64,000 nucleotides of DNA from Candidatus Thorarchaeota archaeon. Lineage in GTDB: Archaea > Asgardarchaeota > Thorarchaeia > Thorarchaeales > Thorarchaeaceae. Position numbers and translations under genes: made by a program. The notes below the pieces were generated by a model. It was not told the DNA's origin, did not search any database, and worked only from the letters and a program-made list of their open reading frames with translations. The stretch is taken from positions 96,001-160,000 of the forward strand of contig CAVSBO010000003.1 of assembly GCA_963726195.1 (NCBI GenBank). Direction: 5' to 3'. Positions 6,228 through 14,470 of the stretch are shown one piece after another (position 1 is the stretch's first letter; each line of letters opens with the position of its first letter).

Positions 6228-7105
6228 AGGAGTACATCCTGTATACGGGATGCACCACACCTGTCAGGCATCCAGGGTACGAAGCTGCCACGAGGGCCGT
6301 GCTTGAGAAGCTGGGTGTGCACCTTGTCACCGTGAAAGGGATGAACTGCTGCGGAGCGCAGTACATCGAGTCCCTAAACAGAATGGCCTTTGCCGCGATG
6401 GGCGGACGCATCCTCGCTCTCGCTGAACGCGAAGGCAAAGACATTCTGGCGATATGCGGTGCGTGTTCGGGTTCTTTGAAGCACAACAAGCACCTTCTTG
6501 ATACAGATAAGAAAGTCAGGGACGAAGTGAACTCGCTTCTGGCAAGTGAGGGGCTCAAGTACACGGGAAAGGTTGACGTCAAACATCTCTTGCAGGTCAT
6601 GAGAGACGATATTGGTTATGATAAAATCAAGGCCGCAACTGTGAGACCGTACACGGGCATTCGTCTTGCCGCTCACTATGGGTGTCACGTCACGAGACCC
6701 TACGACATAGTGAAGGTTGATGACCCCGAGAACCCGACCGTCATAGACAAAATCATCGAAGCGGTCGGCGCTACACCAGTTGACTACCCGGGCAAGACAA
6801 GATGCTGCGGCGGACCCTTGCTAGCAATGGACCAAGATCTGGCTGGCAAGATCGGTATGGAGAAGATAAGGAACGTTAGGTCCGTCGGAGCCCAAGGCAT
6901 CGTTACGGCATGTGTGTTCTGTGATATTCAGCTCACCCAAGTGCAATTCGGAGAAGACATTCAGCCTGAGGAACGCATTCCGGTTATCACACTTCCACAA
7001 TTCATGGGCCCGGCGCTTGGAATAGGTGACCAGGCACTAGGCCTCTACCTCACGAAGATAAGCCCTGATCATATTCTTGAAGCATTGCAGGAGGCAAAAA
7101 CGTGA
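6224..7105 (+). CDS. hdrB: Heterodisulfide reductase subunit B
   Basis: YTGC, CCG, HYGCH, CCGG and TACVFC CCG-domain motifs; GTG start overlaps the hdrC stop. Confidence 0.92.
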   Translation: MKEYILYTGCTTPVRHPGYEAATRAVLEKLGVHLVTVKGMNCCGAQYIESLNRMAFAAMGGRILALAEREGKDILAICGACSGSLKHNKHLLDTDKKVRDEVNSLLASEGLKYTGKVDVKHLLQVMRDDIGYDKIKAATVRPYTGIRLAAHYGCHVTRPYDIVKVDDPENPTVIDKIIEAVGATPVDYPGKTRCCGGPLLAMDQDLAGKIGMEKIRNVRSVGAQGIVTACVFCDIQLTQVQFGEDIQPEERIPVITLPQFMGPALGIGDQALGLYLTKISPDHILEALQEAKT

Positions 7106-8442
7106 GCAAGACCGCAGGAAAGAAATCATCTTCCTCAACGAAATCCAAGGGGTCTCAGAATGCTCTGGTAATAGGCGGCGGTGTCGCAGGAATGCAGGCA
7201 TCGCTAGACTTAGCAAATCAGGGATTCAAGGTCTACTTGGTAGAGAAGTCACCATCCATAGGCGGACGGATGGCAATGCTGGACAAGACATTTCCCACCT
7301 TGGATTGCTCGGCTTGCATTTTGACTCCCAGATTGAGCGAAGTCACTCATCATCCTAACATCAAGCTGCTGACCTATTCAGAAGTAGAGTCAATCAGCGG
7401 CACTGCTGGCAGTTTCAAGGTGAAAGTGCTAAGAAAGGCGCGGTTTGTTCGAGAGGACAAGTGTTCAGGTTGCGCTGCATGTTTTGCTGAGTGTCCAGTC
7501 GAAGCACCAAACGAATTCGATTGGGGAATAGGATTCAGGAAGGCGATTTACATTTCATTCCCACAGGCAACACCGAACATATCTACAGTGGACAAGGCAA
7601 CTTGTATCAAGTGCAACCGTTGTGTCAAGGTATGCGAACGAGAAGCAATAGACCTGAACATGACGGACGAATACGTTGATCTCGATGTCGGTGCGATTGT
7701 TGTTGCCACTGGCTATCGCCTATTTGATGTCGTTGCATACCCACGGCTGGGTTATGGCAAGTATGCCAATGTCATTCATGCAATGGAGTTCGAGCGACTA
7801 ATCAATGCTGCAGGCCCCACAGGCGGCCATCTGATTAGACTGAGTGACGGAAAGATACCCAAGAGCGTTGGATTTGTCCAGTGCGTCGGCGCCAGAGACG
7901 TGAACAAAGGTGTGCCGTTCTGTTCGAGGGTGTGCTGTATGTACGGCATCAAGAACGCAGTGATGACAAAGGAGCACTATCCTGATACTGATGTCACCGT
8001 ATACTATGCAGACATCAGAGCTTTCGGGAAGGGATTCGAAGAATTCTATGAGACTGCACAGAGTCGGTTTGGAGTCAAGTTCATGAAGGGAAGGGTCGGT
8101 GAGGTGGCCGAGAACCCAACGAGCGAGGATTTGGTAGTTCGGGTGGAGGATGTCTTACATCACAAAGTGATGCAGGTACAGCATGACCTTGTCGTTCTGT
8201 GTCCAGGGCTTCAGCCGCCGAAGGACTTGGAAAGTCTTGCCAACCAACTGGGAGTTGACCTCAGCGAGGAGGGTTACATTGAGGCTCAGAACGTATTTTC
8301 AGGCCCAGTGGATACGAAGATTCCAGGCGTCTACGTATGTGGTTGCGCTGACGGTCCTAAGGATATCCCCGATTCAGTAACAGCAGGAAGTGCTGCGGCC
8401 ATGAGAACTAGCATAGTACTCGCAAAAGGAGGCGCCGCGTAA
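7102..8442 (+). CDS. hdrA: Heterodisulfide reductase subunit A-like flavoprotein (FAD domain + inserted 2x[4Fe-4S] ferredoxin)
   Basis: GGGVAG, LDKTFPTLDCSACIL, two ferredoxin motifs, CSRVCCMY, GPKDIPDS; lacks the N-terminal HdrA domain. Confidence 0.9.
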   Translation: MSKTAGKKSSSSTKSKGSQNALVIGGGVAGMQASLDLANQGFKVYLVEKSPSIGGRMAMLDKTFPTLDCSACILTPRLSEVTHHPNIKLLTYSEVESISGTAGSFKVKVLRKARFVREDKCSGCAACFAECPVEAPNEFDWGIGFRKAIYISFPQATPNISTVDKATCIKCNRCVKVCEREAIDLNMTDEYVDLDVGAIVVATGYRLFDVVAYPRLGYGKYANVIHAMEFERLINAAGPTGGHLIRLSDGKIPKSVGFVQCVGARDVNKGVPFCSRVCCMYGIKNAVMTKEHYPDTDVTVYYADIRAFGKGFEEFYETAQSRFGVKFMKGRVGEVAENPTSEDLVVRVEDVLHHKVMQVQHDLVVLCPGLQPPKDLESLANQLGVDLSEEGYIEAQNVFSGPVDTKIPGVYVCGCADGPKDIPDSVTAGSAAAMRTSIVLAKGGAA

Positions 8443-10190
8443 TGGCTACCAAGCAAACTCCTAGGATTGGAGTCTTTGTGTGTCACTGCGGGCACAACAT
8501 CGCTGGAGTCGTGGACGTGGCACGAGTGGCCAAGTCGGCGGAGACCTTGCCAAACGTGGTATTCGCAACTCACGAGATGTTCATGTGCTCAGATTCAGGC
8601 CAGAAGCTCATTAAGGACAAGATTGCTGAGCTCAACTTGAACCGAGTCGTTGTGGCCAGCTGCTCGCCGAGAATGCACGAGCCTACGTTCAGACGAGCCG
8701 TTGAGGAAGGAGGTTTGAACCGATATCTCTTCGAGCAGGTCAATCTCAGAGAGCACGTTTCATGGTGTCACATGCGCGAGCCCGAGGCGGCCACGAAAAA
8801 GGCGATAGATCTTGTTCGCATGTCTGTAACTCGTGCTGCCAAACTCGAGAGCTTGCCTATCAAGAGTGTGAAAGTCACTCCCAGAACTCTCGTTGTCGGT
8901 GGCGGGATTGCGGGCCTAACCGCCTCTCTCGATATAGCGGACAGAGGATTTGATGTCGTTCTCGTAGAAAAGCAGAAGGATCTGGGTGGGCACACAATCA
9001 AGTGGGATAGCCTATTCCCTACAGGAGAGAGTGGCACAGAAGTCATGAAACCCTTGATTCAGAAAGCAAAGACTCACAAGAGGATACAGGTGCTCACTGA
9101 CAGTGAGGTCACTAGCTTTGATGGATACATCGGAAACTTCGAAGCAACAATAAAGAACAAGTCGAATGGAACTAGCAAGAAGTTCGATGTCGGTGCCGTT
9201 ATCGTTACCACAGGGTTTGAACCTTTCAAACCTTCGGGCTACTTCTCATATGGTGATAGCCCTGACATCATGACACTGGCGGAATTCGAGGAACGGCCAA
9301 GGGATTCTCAGCTCTTGAAGCCGAGTGATGGTAGAACCGCCAAGAGGGTTGCATTCATCGGCTGCGTGGGATCCCGCGAACCCGGAAAGATCGGACATGA
9401 GCATTGTTCACGCTACTGCTGCACTGCCGTGTCAAAGGTGGCGGGAGACATCAGGGATAGGCTAGATGAAGTGCTGATTCTATACAAGGACATCCGCACT
9501 TATGGAAAGGGTCACGAGGAATTCTACAGACTAGCCCACGCTAAGAGTGTCATCTACTCAAGATACCCCACAGATGAGGAACCTTCCGTTAGTGTGAGAG
9601 ACGGTAAGATCGAGATTGACTGGAGAGACATCTTTGCAGACGAGCAGCTTCACTTCGAACCCGATCTCCTGATACTTGCTTCTGCCATGATGCCGCCTGA
9701 GGACATGGCGAACACTGCCAAGATGTTCAGTCTGACCCGAAGCGGTGATGGCTTCTTCAATCCTGAACACATTAAGCTGGCTCCTGTCACAACTCACACT
9801 GCAGGTATAATGATAGCAGGTGCTTCTCAGGCTGCCAAGAACGCTTCCGAATCGGTAATCGATGCAAGCGGAGCTGCAGCGAAGGCTGTTGGTCTGATGG
9901 CGAGAGGGCAGGTGGAGATTGAATCTACTGTTTCTCATGTGATTTCGGAACTGTGCTCCAGTTGTCGCACATGTGTCACGGCCTGTCCTTACGGAGCCAT
10001 TGCTATGGATGAGACCGAGAAACCTCCGGTAGCACTTGTGACAGAAGCAAAATGCCACGGTTGTGGAACCTGCGCTGCTGCGTGTCCGAGCAGTGCCATT
10101 ATCATGTATCATTCAACAGATGACCAGATTCTCACGATGGTCGAGGCGTACCTGTGTCCGCCCGTACCCGCTGAAGGAGGTGCCGCATGA
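8442..10190 (+). CDS. hdrA: Heterodisulfide reductase subunit A-like flavoprotein (N-terminal domain + FAD + C-terminal ferredoxin)
   Basis: RIGVFVCHCGHNI, ASCSPRMHEPTF, REHVSWCH, GGGIAG, CSRYCC, C-terminal 2x CxxCxxCxxxCP. Confidence 0.9.
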   Translation: MATKQTPRIGVFVCHCGHNIAGVVDVARVAKSAETLPNVVFATHEMFMCSDSGQKLIKDKIAELNLNRVVVASCSPRMHEPTFRRAVEEGGLNRYLFEQVNLREHVSWCHMREPEAATKKAIDLVRMSVTRAAKLESLPIKSVKVTPRTLVVGGGIAGLTASLDIADRGFDVVLVEKQKDLGGHTIKWDSLFPTGESGTEVMKPLIQKAKTHKRIQVLTDSEVTSFDGYIGNFEATIKNKSNGTSKKFDVGAVIVTTGFEPFKPSGYFSYGDSPDIMTLAEFEERPRDSQLLKPSDGRTAKRVAFIGCVGSREPGKIGHEHCSRYCCTAVSKVAGDIRDRLDEVLILYKDIRTYGKGHEEFYRLAHAKSVIYSRYPTDEEPSVSVRDGKIEIDWRDIFADEQLHFEPDLLILASAMMPPEDMANTAKMFSLTRSGDGFFNPEHIKLAPVTTHTAGIMIAGASQAAKNASESVIDASGAAAKAVGLMARGQVEIESTVSHVISELCSSCRTCVTACPYGAIAMDETEKPPVALVTEAKCHGCGTCAAACPSSAIIMYHSTDDQILTMVEAYLCPPVPAEGGAA

Positions 10191-10663
10191 TGGCTTCTGC
10201 GTCGGTACAGACAACTGACCAGACGACAGAACCACTGTCTGCCACTGGAGAAAAGCAATGGGAACCCAGGATTCTCGCGTACTGCTGTAACTGGTGCTCA
10301 TACGCCGGCGCTGATCTTGCTGGCACAAGCAGGATACAGTATCCTCCGAATGCAAGGATCCTCCGGGTGAATTGTACCGGACGCATCAGCCCTGAGTTCA
10401 TACTTGCCGCACTGGAAATGGGCGCAGACGGTGTCCTTGTATCGGGGTGTCACCCAGGTGATTGCCACTATACGAGCGGAAACCTAAAGCTTAGGGCCCG
10501 CTGGGCATTGCTTGAGAAGACAATCGAACAAGCCGGAGTAGATCCTCGACGTGTAAGACTGCAATGGGCGAGTGCGTCGGAAGCGCAGATATTCGCTGAT
10601 GGAGTGAGGACTCTCACAGAGCAGGTTCGTAAGCTTGGACCGATAGGGAGGGAATGGAAGTGA
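10187..10663 (+). CDS. mvhD: F420-non-reducing hydrogenase delta subunit (Cys form)
   Basis: CCNWCSYAGADLAG, VNCTGRI, GCHPGDCHY, WASASE. Confidence 0.93.
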   Translation: MMASASVQTTDQTTEPLSATGEKQWEPRILAYCCNWCSYAGADLAGTSRIQYPPNARILRVNCTGRISPEFILAALEMGADGVLVSGCHPGDCHYTSGNLKLRARWALLEKTIEQAGVDPRRVRLQWASASEAQIFADGVRTLTEQVRKLGPIGREWK

Positions 10664-10893
10664 GAGAGTTCACGCAGTTCTTCGAACAGAACAGGGGTGC
10701 AGTCAGAAAGCAGAGGAAGTCCATAGAAGATGCACTCTCGTCTTCTCCCGCCACCGTAACAGAACTCGCTGCGAAGACTCAGCTGACTAAGAAGCTGATT
10801 GTATGGAACCTTATCGGGATGCTGAAGTGGGGCACTGTGGAAGTAAAAGGCGAGCATGATGATGAGCTCGTATATGCATTGAAGGAGGCCTGA
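10660..10893 (+). CDS. Small winged-helix-like protein within the hydrogenase operon
   Basis: IEDALSSSPATVTELAAKTQL..LIVWNL..GTVEV wHTH pattern; overlaps the mvhD stop and ends 2 bp before mvhG. Confidence 0.7.
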   Translation: MREFTQFFEQNRGAVRKQRKSIEDALSSSPATVTELAAKTQLTKKLIVWNLIGMLKWGTVEVKGEHDDELVYALKEA

Positions 10894-10895
10894 GA

Positions 10896-11825
10896 ATGAC
10901 TGAGCCCGTTCCTGTAGCGATGGCACAGGGCAGTTCCTGCTGGGGCTGCTTTCAGAGTCTTATAGACATCCACCTCAAGCTTGCAGATGTTCTGCCACTG
11001 CTAAACATCAAGTATTGGCAAGCGGTGGTCGACTACAAGCTCAAGGATCTTGAAGGTTATCCTGACGGTTCAATCGCGGTTGGGTTCTACGAGGGAATGG
11101 CCAGAACGGAAGAGGACGTCCATCTTCTCAACACGATGCGAGCAAAGTGCAAGACGCTGATAGCGTTCGGCTCTTGCTCATGCTTCGGTGGTGTTCCGGG
11201 CATGGCCAACTTTTATGATATTGAGGAATGTTATGACGCCAAGTTCCGTCACAACAAAACTGTGAATGATGGGAAGGTTCCTTCAAAGAACGTTCCGCCA
11301 ATCGAGAATGTCGTCAGGCCTAACACGGACTACGTGAATTTCGAAGTGTTCCTGCCAGGCTGTCCTCCAACTTCAAAGTTGATCCTCACGGCGGTCAGTG
11401 CATTGCTGGAGGGTAAGCCCTTGGATTTGCCTCCACACACGGTCTGTCATTACTGCAAACGCGAGAAAAAGGAGACACCCATCTCAGAAATACTCAGACC
11501 GTACGTTGGCAAGGCCGATTCCAAGAGGTGCCTATTGGAACAGGGATACATTTGCATGGGTCCGTCGACGTGGGGACTATGTGAGGGACCGTGCGTGAAC
11601 AAGGGCGCAACATGCCGAGGCTGCTTTGGCCCATCGCCGCCTATAACCAAGGATCATGGTGCTGCGTCGATATCAATGCTCGGCACGTATGCACCGATTG
11701 AACCAGAGAGTCTTGTTGCACAGGTGAAAGACCCTCTCGGGACCTTCTACAGATTCGACTATCCCACAAGCCATCTAGGACGTATTCGTATCAAGCGCGA
11801 AGACGCAAAGAGGAGGCGCGAGTAG
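10896..11825 (+). CDS. mvhG: F420-non-reducing [NiFe] hydrogenase small subunit
   Basis: SCWGC, FGSCSCFGG, LPGCPP, CLLEQGYICMGP, CRGCFGP. Confidence 0.92.
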   Translation: MTEPVPVAMAQGSSCWGCFQSLIDIHLKLADVLPLLNIKYWQAVVDYKLKDLEGYPDGSIAVGFYEGMARTEEDVHLLNTMRAKCKTLIAFGSCSCFGGVPGMANFYDIEECYDAKFRHNKTVNDGKVPSKNVPPIENVVRPNTDYVNFEVFLPGCPPTSKLILTAVSALLEGKPLDLPPHTVCHYCKREKKETPISEILRPYVGKADSKRCLLEQGYICMGPSTWGLCEGPCVNKGATCRGCFGPSPPITKDHGAASISMLGTYAPIEPESLVAQVKDPLGTFYRFDYPTSHLGRIRIKREDAKRRRE

Positions 11826-11826
11826 A

Positions 11827-13144
11827 GTGCCAGAAGAAAAGACAATCCGGATCAATCCTGTTACTCGCCTCGAGGGTCATGGAGCTCTCACCATAAAGCT
11901 GGGTCCCGGCAACAAGGTGAAGGATGTTCAATTCAATATCGGGAGTACTCGCTTCTTTGAGCAGTTCATGGTTGGCAGGCCGATGGAGGAAGTACCAAGG
12001 ATTGCTCCAAGAATATGCGGCATCTGCCCCGAGCCACATCACCTAGCCTCAGTGAAGGCTGTCGAGGCCGCTTGGGATGTCAAGCCACCCCCTGCTGCAA
12101 CGAAACTGAGAACGGCTATTGCTCGAATCTAAGCAGCTATCTTCTCATGCGATTCATTTCTATGCGTTAGCAGCCCCTGACTTCGTCTTTGGCCCGTTCG
12201 CCAAGCCAGAAGTAAGAAACGTTGCTGCCGTTTTGAAGTACAAGCCGGATATCGCCGTGCAAGCTATCAAGATAATGGAGTTCGGTCAGGAACTCTGCAG
12301 GGACATAGGAGCAAAGGCCATCCATCCAGTGACTGCGATTCCTGGAGGAATGCTCAACACTCTGACAGAGGAAGAACGTGACAAGTGGCTTGCTGCCGTG
12401 CCCGCGATGCTGGACAATGTGCAGAAGACCGTTGCACTTGCAAAGACAGTCGTGAACGCTTACATCGACGTGATCAAGAAGGTAGCGGTAACTCCGACTT
12501 ACTACGTAGGGCTTTCGAACAGAGGAGTTCATGACATATACGACGGGACCGTTCATGTGATGGACCCCGCGGGAAAGATTGTTGCTGACTTTGAAGCAAA
12601 GGACTACACGAAGTACTTTGGTGAATATGTTCCTGAACACTCCTATGCGACCCACATCTACTACAAGCCCGCAGGCTATCCCCAAGGAATCTGGAGGGCG
12701 AACACACTCGCGAGATGCAACATCGCAGACAAGATGGCTACTCCACTTGCTGATGCAGCATTGAAGGAAATGCGAACCTTGCTTGGGAGACCTTCTCATC
12801 ACACTTTCGGCTATCACTATGCAAGGATAGTAGAGATGGTACAAGCCGCTGAATCAATCAAGAGGCTCCTAGAAGACCCAGACATCGTAAGTACAGACGT
12901 CAAGCTGTCAGATGTGCAGCCCAAGGCTGGTGATGGAGTAGGCGTTGTCGAAGCGCCTCGTGGTACCTGCTTGCATAACTACGAGTGCAACGATGAAGGC
13001 ATTGTTACCAAAGCAAACATTATAGTCGCGACGAACCACAACGTAGGCGGCATTGAGAAATCACTGATGGATGCTGCCAAGCTCATCTTTGAGCAGGACG
13101 GACTCAAGAAACTGAAACTCCCTGAACCACTTGTGAAAACCTAG
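11827..13144 (+). CDS. vhuA: Group 3c [NiFe(Se)] hydrogenase large subunit, VhuA type, lacking the C-terminal Ni motif (frameshift ~12115)
   Basis: PVTRLEGHG, PRICGIC, VEAPRG, IVATNHN; one extra base at ctgagaAcggcta; no DPCxxC at the C-terminus. Confidence 0.88.
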
Positions 13145-13157
13145 AGAGGAAATCAAG

Positions 13158-13310
13158 ATGACAGACGAAATACCCGAAGGCGTGCTCAATCTCCTTGAGA
13201 TGGTAGTACGCTGCTATGACTGCTGACTCTCGTGCGCCGCTCATATCGTCATCGTGGACGAAGAGGGGCGCGAGATAGCCAGGAAGGAGATAGTGACCTG
13301 CGAAGAATGA
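13158..13310 (+). CDS. vhuU: Selenocysteine-containing hydrogenase subunit VhuU (50 aa)
   Basis: MTDEIPEGVLNLLEMVVRCYDC-U(TGA 13224-13226)-LSCAAHIVIVDEEGREIARKEIVTCEE*; supplies the L2 Ni motif missing from VhuA; RBS gagagga upstream. Confidence 0.92.
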
Positions 13311-13368
13311 AGGTGCGGTCGCAAAGAACTATACCGCGCTCGACAACCCTGCAAGGGTCGCCGGTCAC
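13293..13368 (+). promoter_or_regulatory. Eukaryote-like SECIS element of vhuU
   Basis: AUGA 13307-13310; stem ggtgcggt/accgcgct; AAA 13323-13325; GA 13342-13343; basal helix gtgacc.gcga/tcgc.ggtcac. Confidence 0.75.
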
Positions 13369-13574
13369 TCTCCTTCGTTCTCTCTCATTTCTGTGTCATG
13401 ACGTGCCTTGACTTCAATGCTCTTGGTGGTATTTCCGGAGGATTTGAGCTATTGCCTCGATTAGATCACGCCCGGGTGCAATCAGCCAATCTGCATGCGG
13501 CACCCTTCTCTATTGGAGTGGATGCGAAAACGAGAAGGGGAGGATATATCTCGACCTACTCCAACCAAGAAAGC

Positions 13575-13757
13575 GTGACTAATCGCCAAGCCGAATCAAT
13601 ACCAAAGCAGGTGAGACGCCGACGCGACCGAGAGCAGATTGTGTCCGCTCTTCGTGCCAGACAGTTGTCCGGGGAGGAGACATTGTCCCTAGGACTCGAA
13701 CTATCCGACCTTGCGGTTCGAACGACCAGAAGGCAGCACGATGAACGAATTCGGTGA
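13575..13757 (+). CDS. Small putative antitoxin/partner of the nucleotidyltransferase
   Basis: Short basic ORF (RQLSGEETLSLGLELSD) overlapping the NTase start; typical two-gene arrangement. Confidence 0.5.
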   Translation: MTNRQAESIPKQVRRRRDREQIVSALRARQLSGEETLSLGLELSDLAVRTTRRQHDERIR

Positions 13758-14310
13758 GGTTCTTCGGGTCGTCTGCAATTTCCTCAACGAGAATGAAGTC
13801 GACTATGTTGTGGTGGGCGGTATTGCTGTAATGTACTATGGTGTTCCCCGCACTACAACCGATATCGACCTGATTATCAGGATGAAGACTGCTGAAATGA
13901 GTCCGTTTGTTGTCTTTCTGAGCTCCCATGGATTCCATGCGAGATTAGAGGACTTGACTGCAGCGTTGAAAGAGGGCTCGCATTGCACTTTCTTCTACGG
14001 AAGAAGCCTCCTCAGACTGGACATTCAAGGGGTCGTCTCTGAGTTCGATAGAATGACCCTTGAAAGGGCAGTCAAGGTGAATCATCTAGGGACCGCTGTC
14101 AGGCTGGCAACGGCCGAAGATACTCTTGTCAACAAGGTGTATTTCCAAGCGGAGCAGGACCTGCGCGATGCCCTAGGAATTTATGTCCGCAATGAGGACA
14201 AGCTGGATTTCAGTTATATCGAGTCTACGTGCAGACTCCTCGGAATCGAAAACAGGTGGAAATCCTTTGTAAGAAAAGCCACCAGGAATATGAAAGAACA
14301 CACCGAGTAG
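13741..14310 (+). CDS. Nucleotidyltransferase (AbiEii/DUF6036-like)
   Basis: YVVVGGIAV..G.PRTTTDIDL, TAEDTLVNK, QDLRDA. Confidence 0.8.
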   Translation: MNEFGEVLRVVCNFLNENEVDYVVVGGIAVMYYGVPRTTTDIDLIIRMKTAEMSPFVVFLSSHGFHARLEDLTAALKEGSHCTFFYGRSLLRLDIQGVVSEFDRMTLERAVKVNHLGTAVRLATAEDTLVNKVYFQAEQDLRDALGIYVRNEDKLDFSYIESTCRLLGIENRWKSFVRKATRNMKEHTE

Positions 14311-14347: not shown

Positions 14348-14470
14348 GATGAGAATGGGTGGCAGACGCCAAGAGCTAGCACGTGACGAGCGGCGAATGA
14401 ACGCGGAGTGGCAAAGAACTGTACCCCCTGGACAAACCCATCGAGGGTCACCGGTCATTTTCCTTCGGTT
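14348..14470 (+). pseudogene. Decayed duplicate of the vhuU 3' end and SECIS
   Basis: gaatgaa..gcaaagaactgtacc..gacaaaccc..gggtcaccggtca..tccttcg aligns with 13305-13378; upstream reads DENG..VTSGE* vs DEEG..VTCEE*. Confidence 0.7.

Follow-up and report, generated by a model that had tools for sequence, protein, structure and literature searches.

The reading frame at positions 13158–13310 of the window, which is a 64,000-nucleotide stretch of a Candidatus Thorarchaeota contig (CAVSBO010000003.1, positions 96,001 to 160,000), is very probably an authentic vhuU gene from an Asgard archaeon resembling the Thorarchaeia. Its product would be the C-terminal part, split off as a separate peptide, of the large subunit of a cytoplasmic [NiFeSe] hydrogenase of group 3c whose operon also holds HdrA-like genes. 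The gene is a member of the Asgard VhuU family that has been in print since 2016, and the little-noticed point about it is a clade-wide D-C-[U/C] signature at the metal site. Positions below are those of the window, and its hydrogenase genes, SECIS element and decayed vhuU copy all lie on the forward strand.

The vhuU gene within its hydrogenase operon

The vhuU frame opens with the ATG at 13158 and runs through 50 codons, including the one for selenocysteine (Sec), to the TGA stop at 13308–13310; its start is separated from the vhuA stop (13142–13144) by a gap of 13 nt. The original prediction had described a hidden gene with this length, position, motif and spacing, all of which were reproduced from the sequence. 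The best family for the product (P0001) is the NCBIfam model VhuU NF041786 (E 3.2e-16), with a score of 58.9 bits that lies below the cut-off of 70 of this model, which is apparently Methanococcales-based, judging by its cited characterised members. Additionally, 9sfi_M, a VhuU chain of 27 residues, and the C-terminal ends of MvhA and FrhA can be aligned with the product residue by residue. This alignment puts the in-frame TGA (13224–13226, codon 23) where the D-P-C-x-x-C-x-x-H motif at the C-terminus has its first Cys, just as had been predicted for the UGA; we take this residue, from established structures, to be the terminal Ni ligand, with Sec in its stead in [NiFeSe] enzymes.

The metal-site motif R-C-Y-D-C-U-L-S-C-A-A-H (13209–13244), which is homologous to those of 9sfi_M, 5odc_F and 3zfs_A, contains the vicinal pair Cys22-Sec23. 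By homology, Cys26 would be the bridging ligand and His29 the expected cleavage site. Behind the His lies a C-terminal extension of 21 codons (13245–13307), a predicted substrate of a HycI-type endopeptidase, and the 3′ half of this extension doubles as a basal helix of the SECIS element. A HycI-family endopeptidase gene is present in the genome, and removal of the tail is presumed.

A homologue with the in-frame TGA at the same codon, and with the frame kept on both sides of it, was found in 22 of the 40 related genomes searched and in the genome itself. These take in most of the same family and, in addition, three other families of the phylum. The reading D-C-[TGA] is present in all extracted loci (23/23, own genome plus 22 relatives). 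Since the product matches the VhuU model and aligns with known C-termini, and since the TGA is kept in relatives, the vhuU frame is not a chance one. The genome also holds a second TGA-bearing vhuU copy on contig C5, beside an intact VhuA frame of 444 residues, as part of a vhuGAU paralogue.

The gene stands in one operon with two tandem genes for HdrA-like flavoproteins (7102–8442 and 8442–10190), vhuD/mvhD (10187–10663), vhuG for the small Fe-S subunit (10896–11825) and vhuA for the large subunit (11827–13144); the HdrA-like genes, vhuD and vhuG were each identified by a profile match. Between them, the two HdrA-like genes match complementary segments of the HdrA2 profile: 128–563 for the first gene and 1–233 for the second, which in a separate model, hdrA_Methbact, also matches 309–636. 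The vhuD gene is of the Cys type and has no in-frame TGA. A 79-codon open reading frame at 10654–10893, between vhuD and vhuG, has no match in Pfam or NCBIfam.

As had been noticed at the outset, VhuA carries RICGIC and lacks the C-terminal Ni motif; specifically, its C-terminus reads ...PEPLVKT, with no D-P-C-x-x-C metal motif. Its nearest match in the PDB is Methanococcus maripaludis VhuA (9sfi_g, from the Hdr-Vhu-Fwd complex; E 1.5e-93), followed by MvhA (5odc_F). In the window, VhuA is read in two pieces, which cover positions 4–93 and 100–417 of the NCBIfam VhuA profile with 124 and 363 bits, against a cut-off of 800 set for a Methanococcus-trained model. As these parts of the profile adjoin, the pieces belong to one gene with a local break. 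A VhuA/MvhA-like large subunit together with VhuD and HdrA genes makes up a group 3c arrangement. The profile matches of VhuU and VhuA, the operon, the conserved TGA and the SECIS element described below together bear out the prediction of a Sec-encoding vhuU belonging to a group 3c hydrogenase.

A SECIS element at the stop codon and the decoding of UGA

The SECIS core (13307–13343) consists of AUGA (13307–13310), an upper stem of 8 bp (13312–13319 paired with 13333–13340), a loop of 13 nt that contains AAA, and GA (13342–13343). The AUGA includes the UGA stop of vhuU itself and begins 83 nt 3′ of the Sec UGA. ATGA occupies the stop in all of the aligned relatives (20/20), and the GA is likewise invariant. 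Across these 20 relatives, both sides have changed in 7 of the 8 stem pairs while 94.6% of cells remain paired; none of 500 shuffles reached the observed value, and slid controls came nowhere near it.

The core is followed by a small side hairpin, ACCC-UGCAA-GGGU (13346–13358), in which CCC/GGG is invariant and the outer pair covaries. A longer fold (z −2.66) adds basal helices within 13283–13376 (13283–13290/13369–13376, 13293–13298/13363–13368 and 13300–13302/13359–13361), which pair the last vhuU codons with 13359–13376 and would close a three-way junction. These helices are 81.8% paired across the relatives, with double-sided changes in six pairs, and RNAalifold, run on the long alignment, gives a lower pairing other than the hand-drawn junction; the support for a three-way junction is moderate.

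The genome encodes a complete archaeal Sec pathway, for which the original prediction had suggested looking. It comprises a tRNA-Sec (57.7 bits, anticodon TCA), SepSecS, PSTK, EFSec and SelD, the gene of the last having an in-frame TGA of its own. EFSec, SepSecS, tRNA-Sec and PSTK (the last on the opposite strand) lie within 4.4 kb on contig C13 (130545–134868), and the SelD encoded on contig C7 is a selenoprotein too. The adverse case named in the prediction, a genome devoid of Sec machinery with Cys in all orthologues, is contradicted by this complete set and by the TGA kept in 22 relatives. Three independent lines, namely the conserved UGA, the covarying SECIS element and the Sec machinery, indicate that the UGA at 13224–13226 is read as Sec.

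By homology with the Methanococcus Vhu system, EFSec would bring Sec-tRNA to the first UGA, and the second UGA, within the SECIS element, would terminate translation. Sec23 would then become the terminal Ni ligand and Cys26 a ligand bridging Ni and Fe, together with two Cys of the RICGIC motif of VhuA. Once the metal has been inserted, a HycI-type protease may trim the 21-residue tail behind His29, as expected from other [NiFe] enzymes.

It had been anticipated that gene callers would miss the gene, and public calls indeed truncate or mistranslate Asgard vhuU. One entry (P0019) ends at ...YDC, while five others (P0006, P0007, P0010, P0014 and P0018) read Trp at both TGAs, apparently called with a code in which TGA is Trp. 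In the annotation of this and similar genomes, the main cytoplasmic hydrogenase is left without its catalytic Sec peptide. With the UGA read as stop or Trp, a metabolic reconstruction can take the enzyme, wrongly, to have no C-terminal Ni ligands.

Integrity of the locus

The original prediction treated vhuA (11827–13144) as one open frame, and a break in it went unseen. Frame 1 closes at the TAA at 12130–12132, and the remainder of the gene is read in frame 2 from about 12113. In comparison with the orthologue of the same genus (G002), one extra A is present at about 12112, inside the GAGAAC at 12108–12113. Both halves are open, with 88% protein identity to the G002 orthologue and no other lesion, and over 20 kb of comparison with G002 this indel is the sole frame-breaking one in the hdr-vhu operon. 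The gene is unbroken in the G002 orthologue and in the closest copies in two further genomes (G001 and G003).

The word statistics around the break were examined genome-wide. The observed/expected ratios, 0.90 for GAGAC and 1.01 for GAGAAC, give no clear signal, and deletion of one A would fuse frames at 1.41% of GAGAAC sites, against 0.6–2.1% for 11 control words; within the window this applies to 2 of 69 GAGAAC sites. The split-looking open reading frames in the neighbourhood matched no Pfam families. A programmed +1 frameshift was considered and rejected, as no slippery sequence or pause signal is known in this context, and the G002, G001 and G003 copies are uninterrupted. The split is probably a one-base consensus error of long-read assembly; a recent real mutation, with the C5 paralogue then carrying the function, takes the minor remaining share of our confidence. 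In two other loci, L023 (G011) and L028 (G014), the VhuA frame 5′ of vhuU is also fragmented, at sites unlike that of the break in the window.

In the downstream flank, 3′ of a nucleotidyltransferase cassette, the vhuU tail and SECIS element occur a second time in decayed form (14368–14470). The duplicate has 71% identity over 58 nt to 13278–13335 and retains AUGA, a loop AAAGAAC and the side hairpin. This copy lies 1.1 kb downstream of vhuU, behind a small open reading frame and a DUF6036 nucleotidyltransferase (13398–14310), and homology to G002 stops at about 13377. The ghost tail and SECIS element imply that the vhuU locus has been rearranged, and the arrangement suggests that the vhuU 3′ end was the target of a cassette insertion or was duplicated by the cassette.

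These features bear on two other readings of the locus. If the TGA were an ordinary stop, the 22-codon piece and the piece downstream would be remnants of a broken large-subunit C-terminus, and a gene caller that closes the frame at this TGA (P0019) treats it in just this way; however, families across the phylum have the TGA at one and the same codon and keep the frame behind it as well, the SECIS element covaries and the Sec machinery is complete, which makes this reading extremely improbable. Alternatively, the operon copy could be a recently inactivated pseudogene in an organism that relies on the intact vhuGAU on C5. The frameshift at about 12112 is what such a history would leave behind, as are the rearranged 3′ flank with its ghost tail and SECIS element and the intact vhuA in the G002 orthologue and the closest G001 and G003 copies. 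Yet the vhuA halves have stayed open and 88% identical to G002 with no further lesion, and vhuU, its SECIS element, vhuG and vhuD are all intact, so we consider recent inactivation fairly unlikely. The preferred reading remains a genuine vhuU within its hydrogenase operon.

The D-C-U motif and its relation to known systems

The Pro of the D-P-C/U motif is near-universal in [NiFe] hydrogenases. We scanned one genome per prokaryotic species with the pattern E-x3-R-x-[YF]-D-[P/C/S/R/W]-TGA-x2-C-[AG]-x-H, which gave at least 80 loci. Among the matches listed, 57 are bacterial, mostly from Desulfobacterota, and are fused large subunits that read D-P-U throughout (57/57), and 23 are archaeal split genes, with D-C-U in 22 and D-P-U in one. 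Methanococcales are absent from the matches listed, and D-P-U of Methanococcus is taken from one PDB chain (9sfi_M) and general knowledge. The codon before Sec is TGC in 32 and TGT in 8 of 40 distinct Asgard sequences, and the use of both indicates that the Cys residue itself is under selection. As judged from these sequences, D-C-U is a trait under selection that marks the Asgard clade as a whole; it is the norm of an already catalogued family and not a peculiarity of the gene in the window. Accounts of the motif as unusual therefore need dividing: it does depart from a near-invariant Pro, as the original prediction stressed, but it is shared by 22 of the 23 archaeal split genes listed. A further Cys, placed in the prediction three residues earlier, lies in fact four before Sec and is not conserved, Hel-like and other Asgard lineages having N, I or A there. 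The D-C-[U/C] signature found no mention in the literature searched, nor in the accessible portions of PMC4989117 and PMC11227280, and only generic CxxU/UxxC motifs are noted in PMC11291895.

The sole archaeal split gene with D-P-U among the matches listed, L101, reads R-C-Y-D-P-U (Promethearchaeota archaeon Zod_Metabat.1044, 6582–6629, reverse strand), and may represent either a reversion or a deeply branching lineage. One D-C-U vhuU (L080) was found on a contig, DATKTP010000196.1, in a bacterial MAG (bin Candidatus Deferrimicrobium). The contig has 38% GC and is syntenic, at 70–80% identity, with an archaeal contig (L094); it is probably misbinned.

A Cys-type VhuU-like paralogue (L052, G015:C63:34318-34449) reads D-C-C-L-S-C-S-A-F, as verified in DNA; it has Cys where Sec would stand, and Phe for the His expected at the protease site. 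About ten further small database proteins from Thor, Sigyn and other Asgard MAGs read D-C-C-L-S-C-[AS]-A-H at the protein level. The existence of such D-C-C homologues shows that the extra Cys is independent of Sec and is not a Sec-specific device. We also sought a change in VhuA coupled to D-C-U and found none. The candidate partner, the Cys in E-A-P-R-G-T-C-L-H of VhuA, occurs in three loci only (the window, G002 and one Thorarchaeota MAG); other D-C-U lineages have Leu at this position, and a coupled change was rejected for this reason.

These observations enter into what the vicinal pair might do. The original prediction suggested a protective selenenylsulfide. In this reading, Cys22 and Sec23 would close on oxidation to an eight-membered selenenylsulfide ring that protects or switches the [NiFeSe] site. 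Such a role would fit the retention of the Cys in 22 of the 23 archaeal split genes listed and in all 23 loci of the relatives' set, as well as the use of both synonymous Cys codons, and there is a chemical precedent in thioredoxin reductase, in which an adjacent Cys-Sec pair forms a selenenylsulfide (PMC10779653). Against it, Cys-type homologues keep D-C-C, D-P-U occurs in one Asgard gene (L101), the mature enzyme should have its Sec bound to Ni, and VhuA offers no partner change; the proposal appears unlikely. In a wider form, the Asgard change from Pro to Cys, giving Cys-Sec or Cys-Cys, might act as a reversible redox lock or assist maturation, with a selenenylsulfide or vicinal disulfide forming while the site lacks Ni or has been oxidised, an idea that we offer by analogy and hold to be quite unlikely. 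We know of no hydrogenase for which a vicinal Cys-Sec or Cys-Cys lock has been described as protection. Whatever its role, D-C-[U/C] changes the residue adjoining the proton-accepting Ni ligand in Asgard group 3c hydrogenases, enzymes that are thought central to hydrogen syntrophy. The established picture of Sec use in Asgard archaea is unchanged by the vhuU of the window.

For Lokiarchaeota, Mariotti et al. 2016 describe a single-Sec VhuU some 50 residues long, and eukaryote-like SECIS elements with AUGA, a 9-bp stem, an 11-nt A-rich loop and GA, or AA in the case of VhuU; in VhuU.1, the AUGA doubles as the UGA stop codon (PMC4989117). According to Huang et al. 2024, the VhuU family is present in 68% of Sec-using Asgard genomes, Sec is used in 77% of Thorarchaeia, and there are Thor-specific loop variants (PMC11227280). 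VhuU has also been found in Atabey- and Freyarchaeia by Valentin-Alvarado et al. 2024 (PMC11291895).

The gene in the window agrees with VhuU of Loki and other Asgard archaea, a family reported to be widespread in Thorarchaeia, in being a gene of about 50 codons behind vhuA, with a single Sec and an AUGA...GA/AA SECIS element directly 3′ of the coding sequence; as in Loki VhuU.1, the UGA stop is part of the AUGA. Its SECIS element deviates slightly from the published Loki form: the stem has 8 bp and an A.C mismatch in place of 9 bp, the loop has 13 nt and not 11 nt, and GA stands where AA was given for Loki VhuU in 2016. Its operon differs as well, with a Cys-type vhuD where a two-Sec VhuD was reported for Loki. 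With Methanococcus VhuU (9sfi chain M), the gene shares the split large subunit, Sec at the terminal Ni-ligand position and the pattern U-x-S-C-A-A-H. The Methanococcus chain reads R-A-Y-D-P-X-Y-S-C-A-A-H, so that R-A-Y-D-P-U there stands against R-C-Y-D-C-U here, and the Methanococcus SECIS element is of the methanogen type, in the 3′ UTR and without AUGA/GA, while AUGA/GA is present here. The Sec-containing fused MvhA of Desulfobacterota shares the pattern E-x-x-x-R-x-Y-D-x-U-x-x-C-x-x-H, with Sec at the same site, but is unsplit, with about 440–470 residues upstream in frame, reads D-P-U throughout among the matches listed, and is served by the bacterial Sec system. Finally, the Gly-Cys-Sec-Gly of mammalian thioredoxin reductase also has an adjacent Cys-Sec pair; the protein is unrelated and the likeness chemical only, since its Sec is a free redox-active selenol, whereas that of Asgard VhuU is expected to be a metal ligand.
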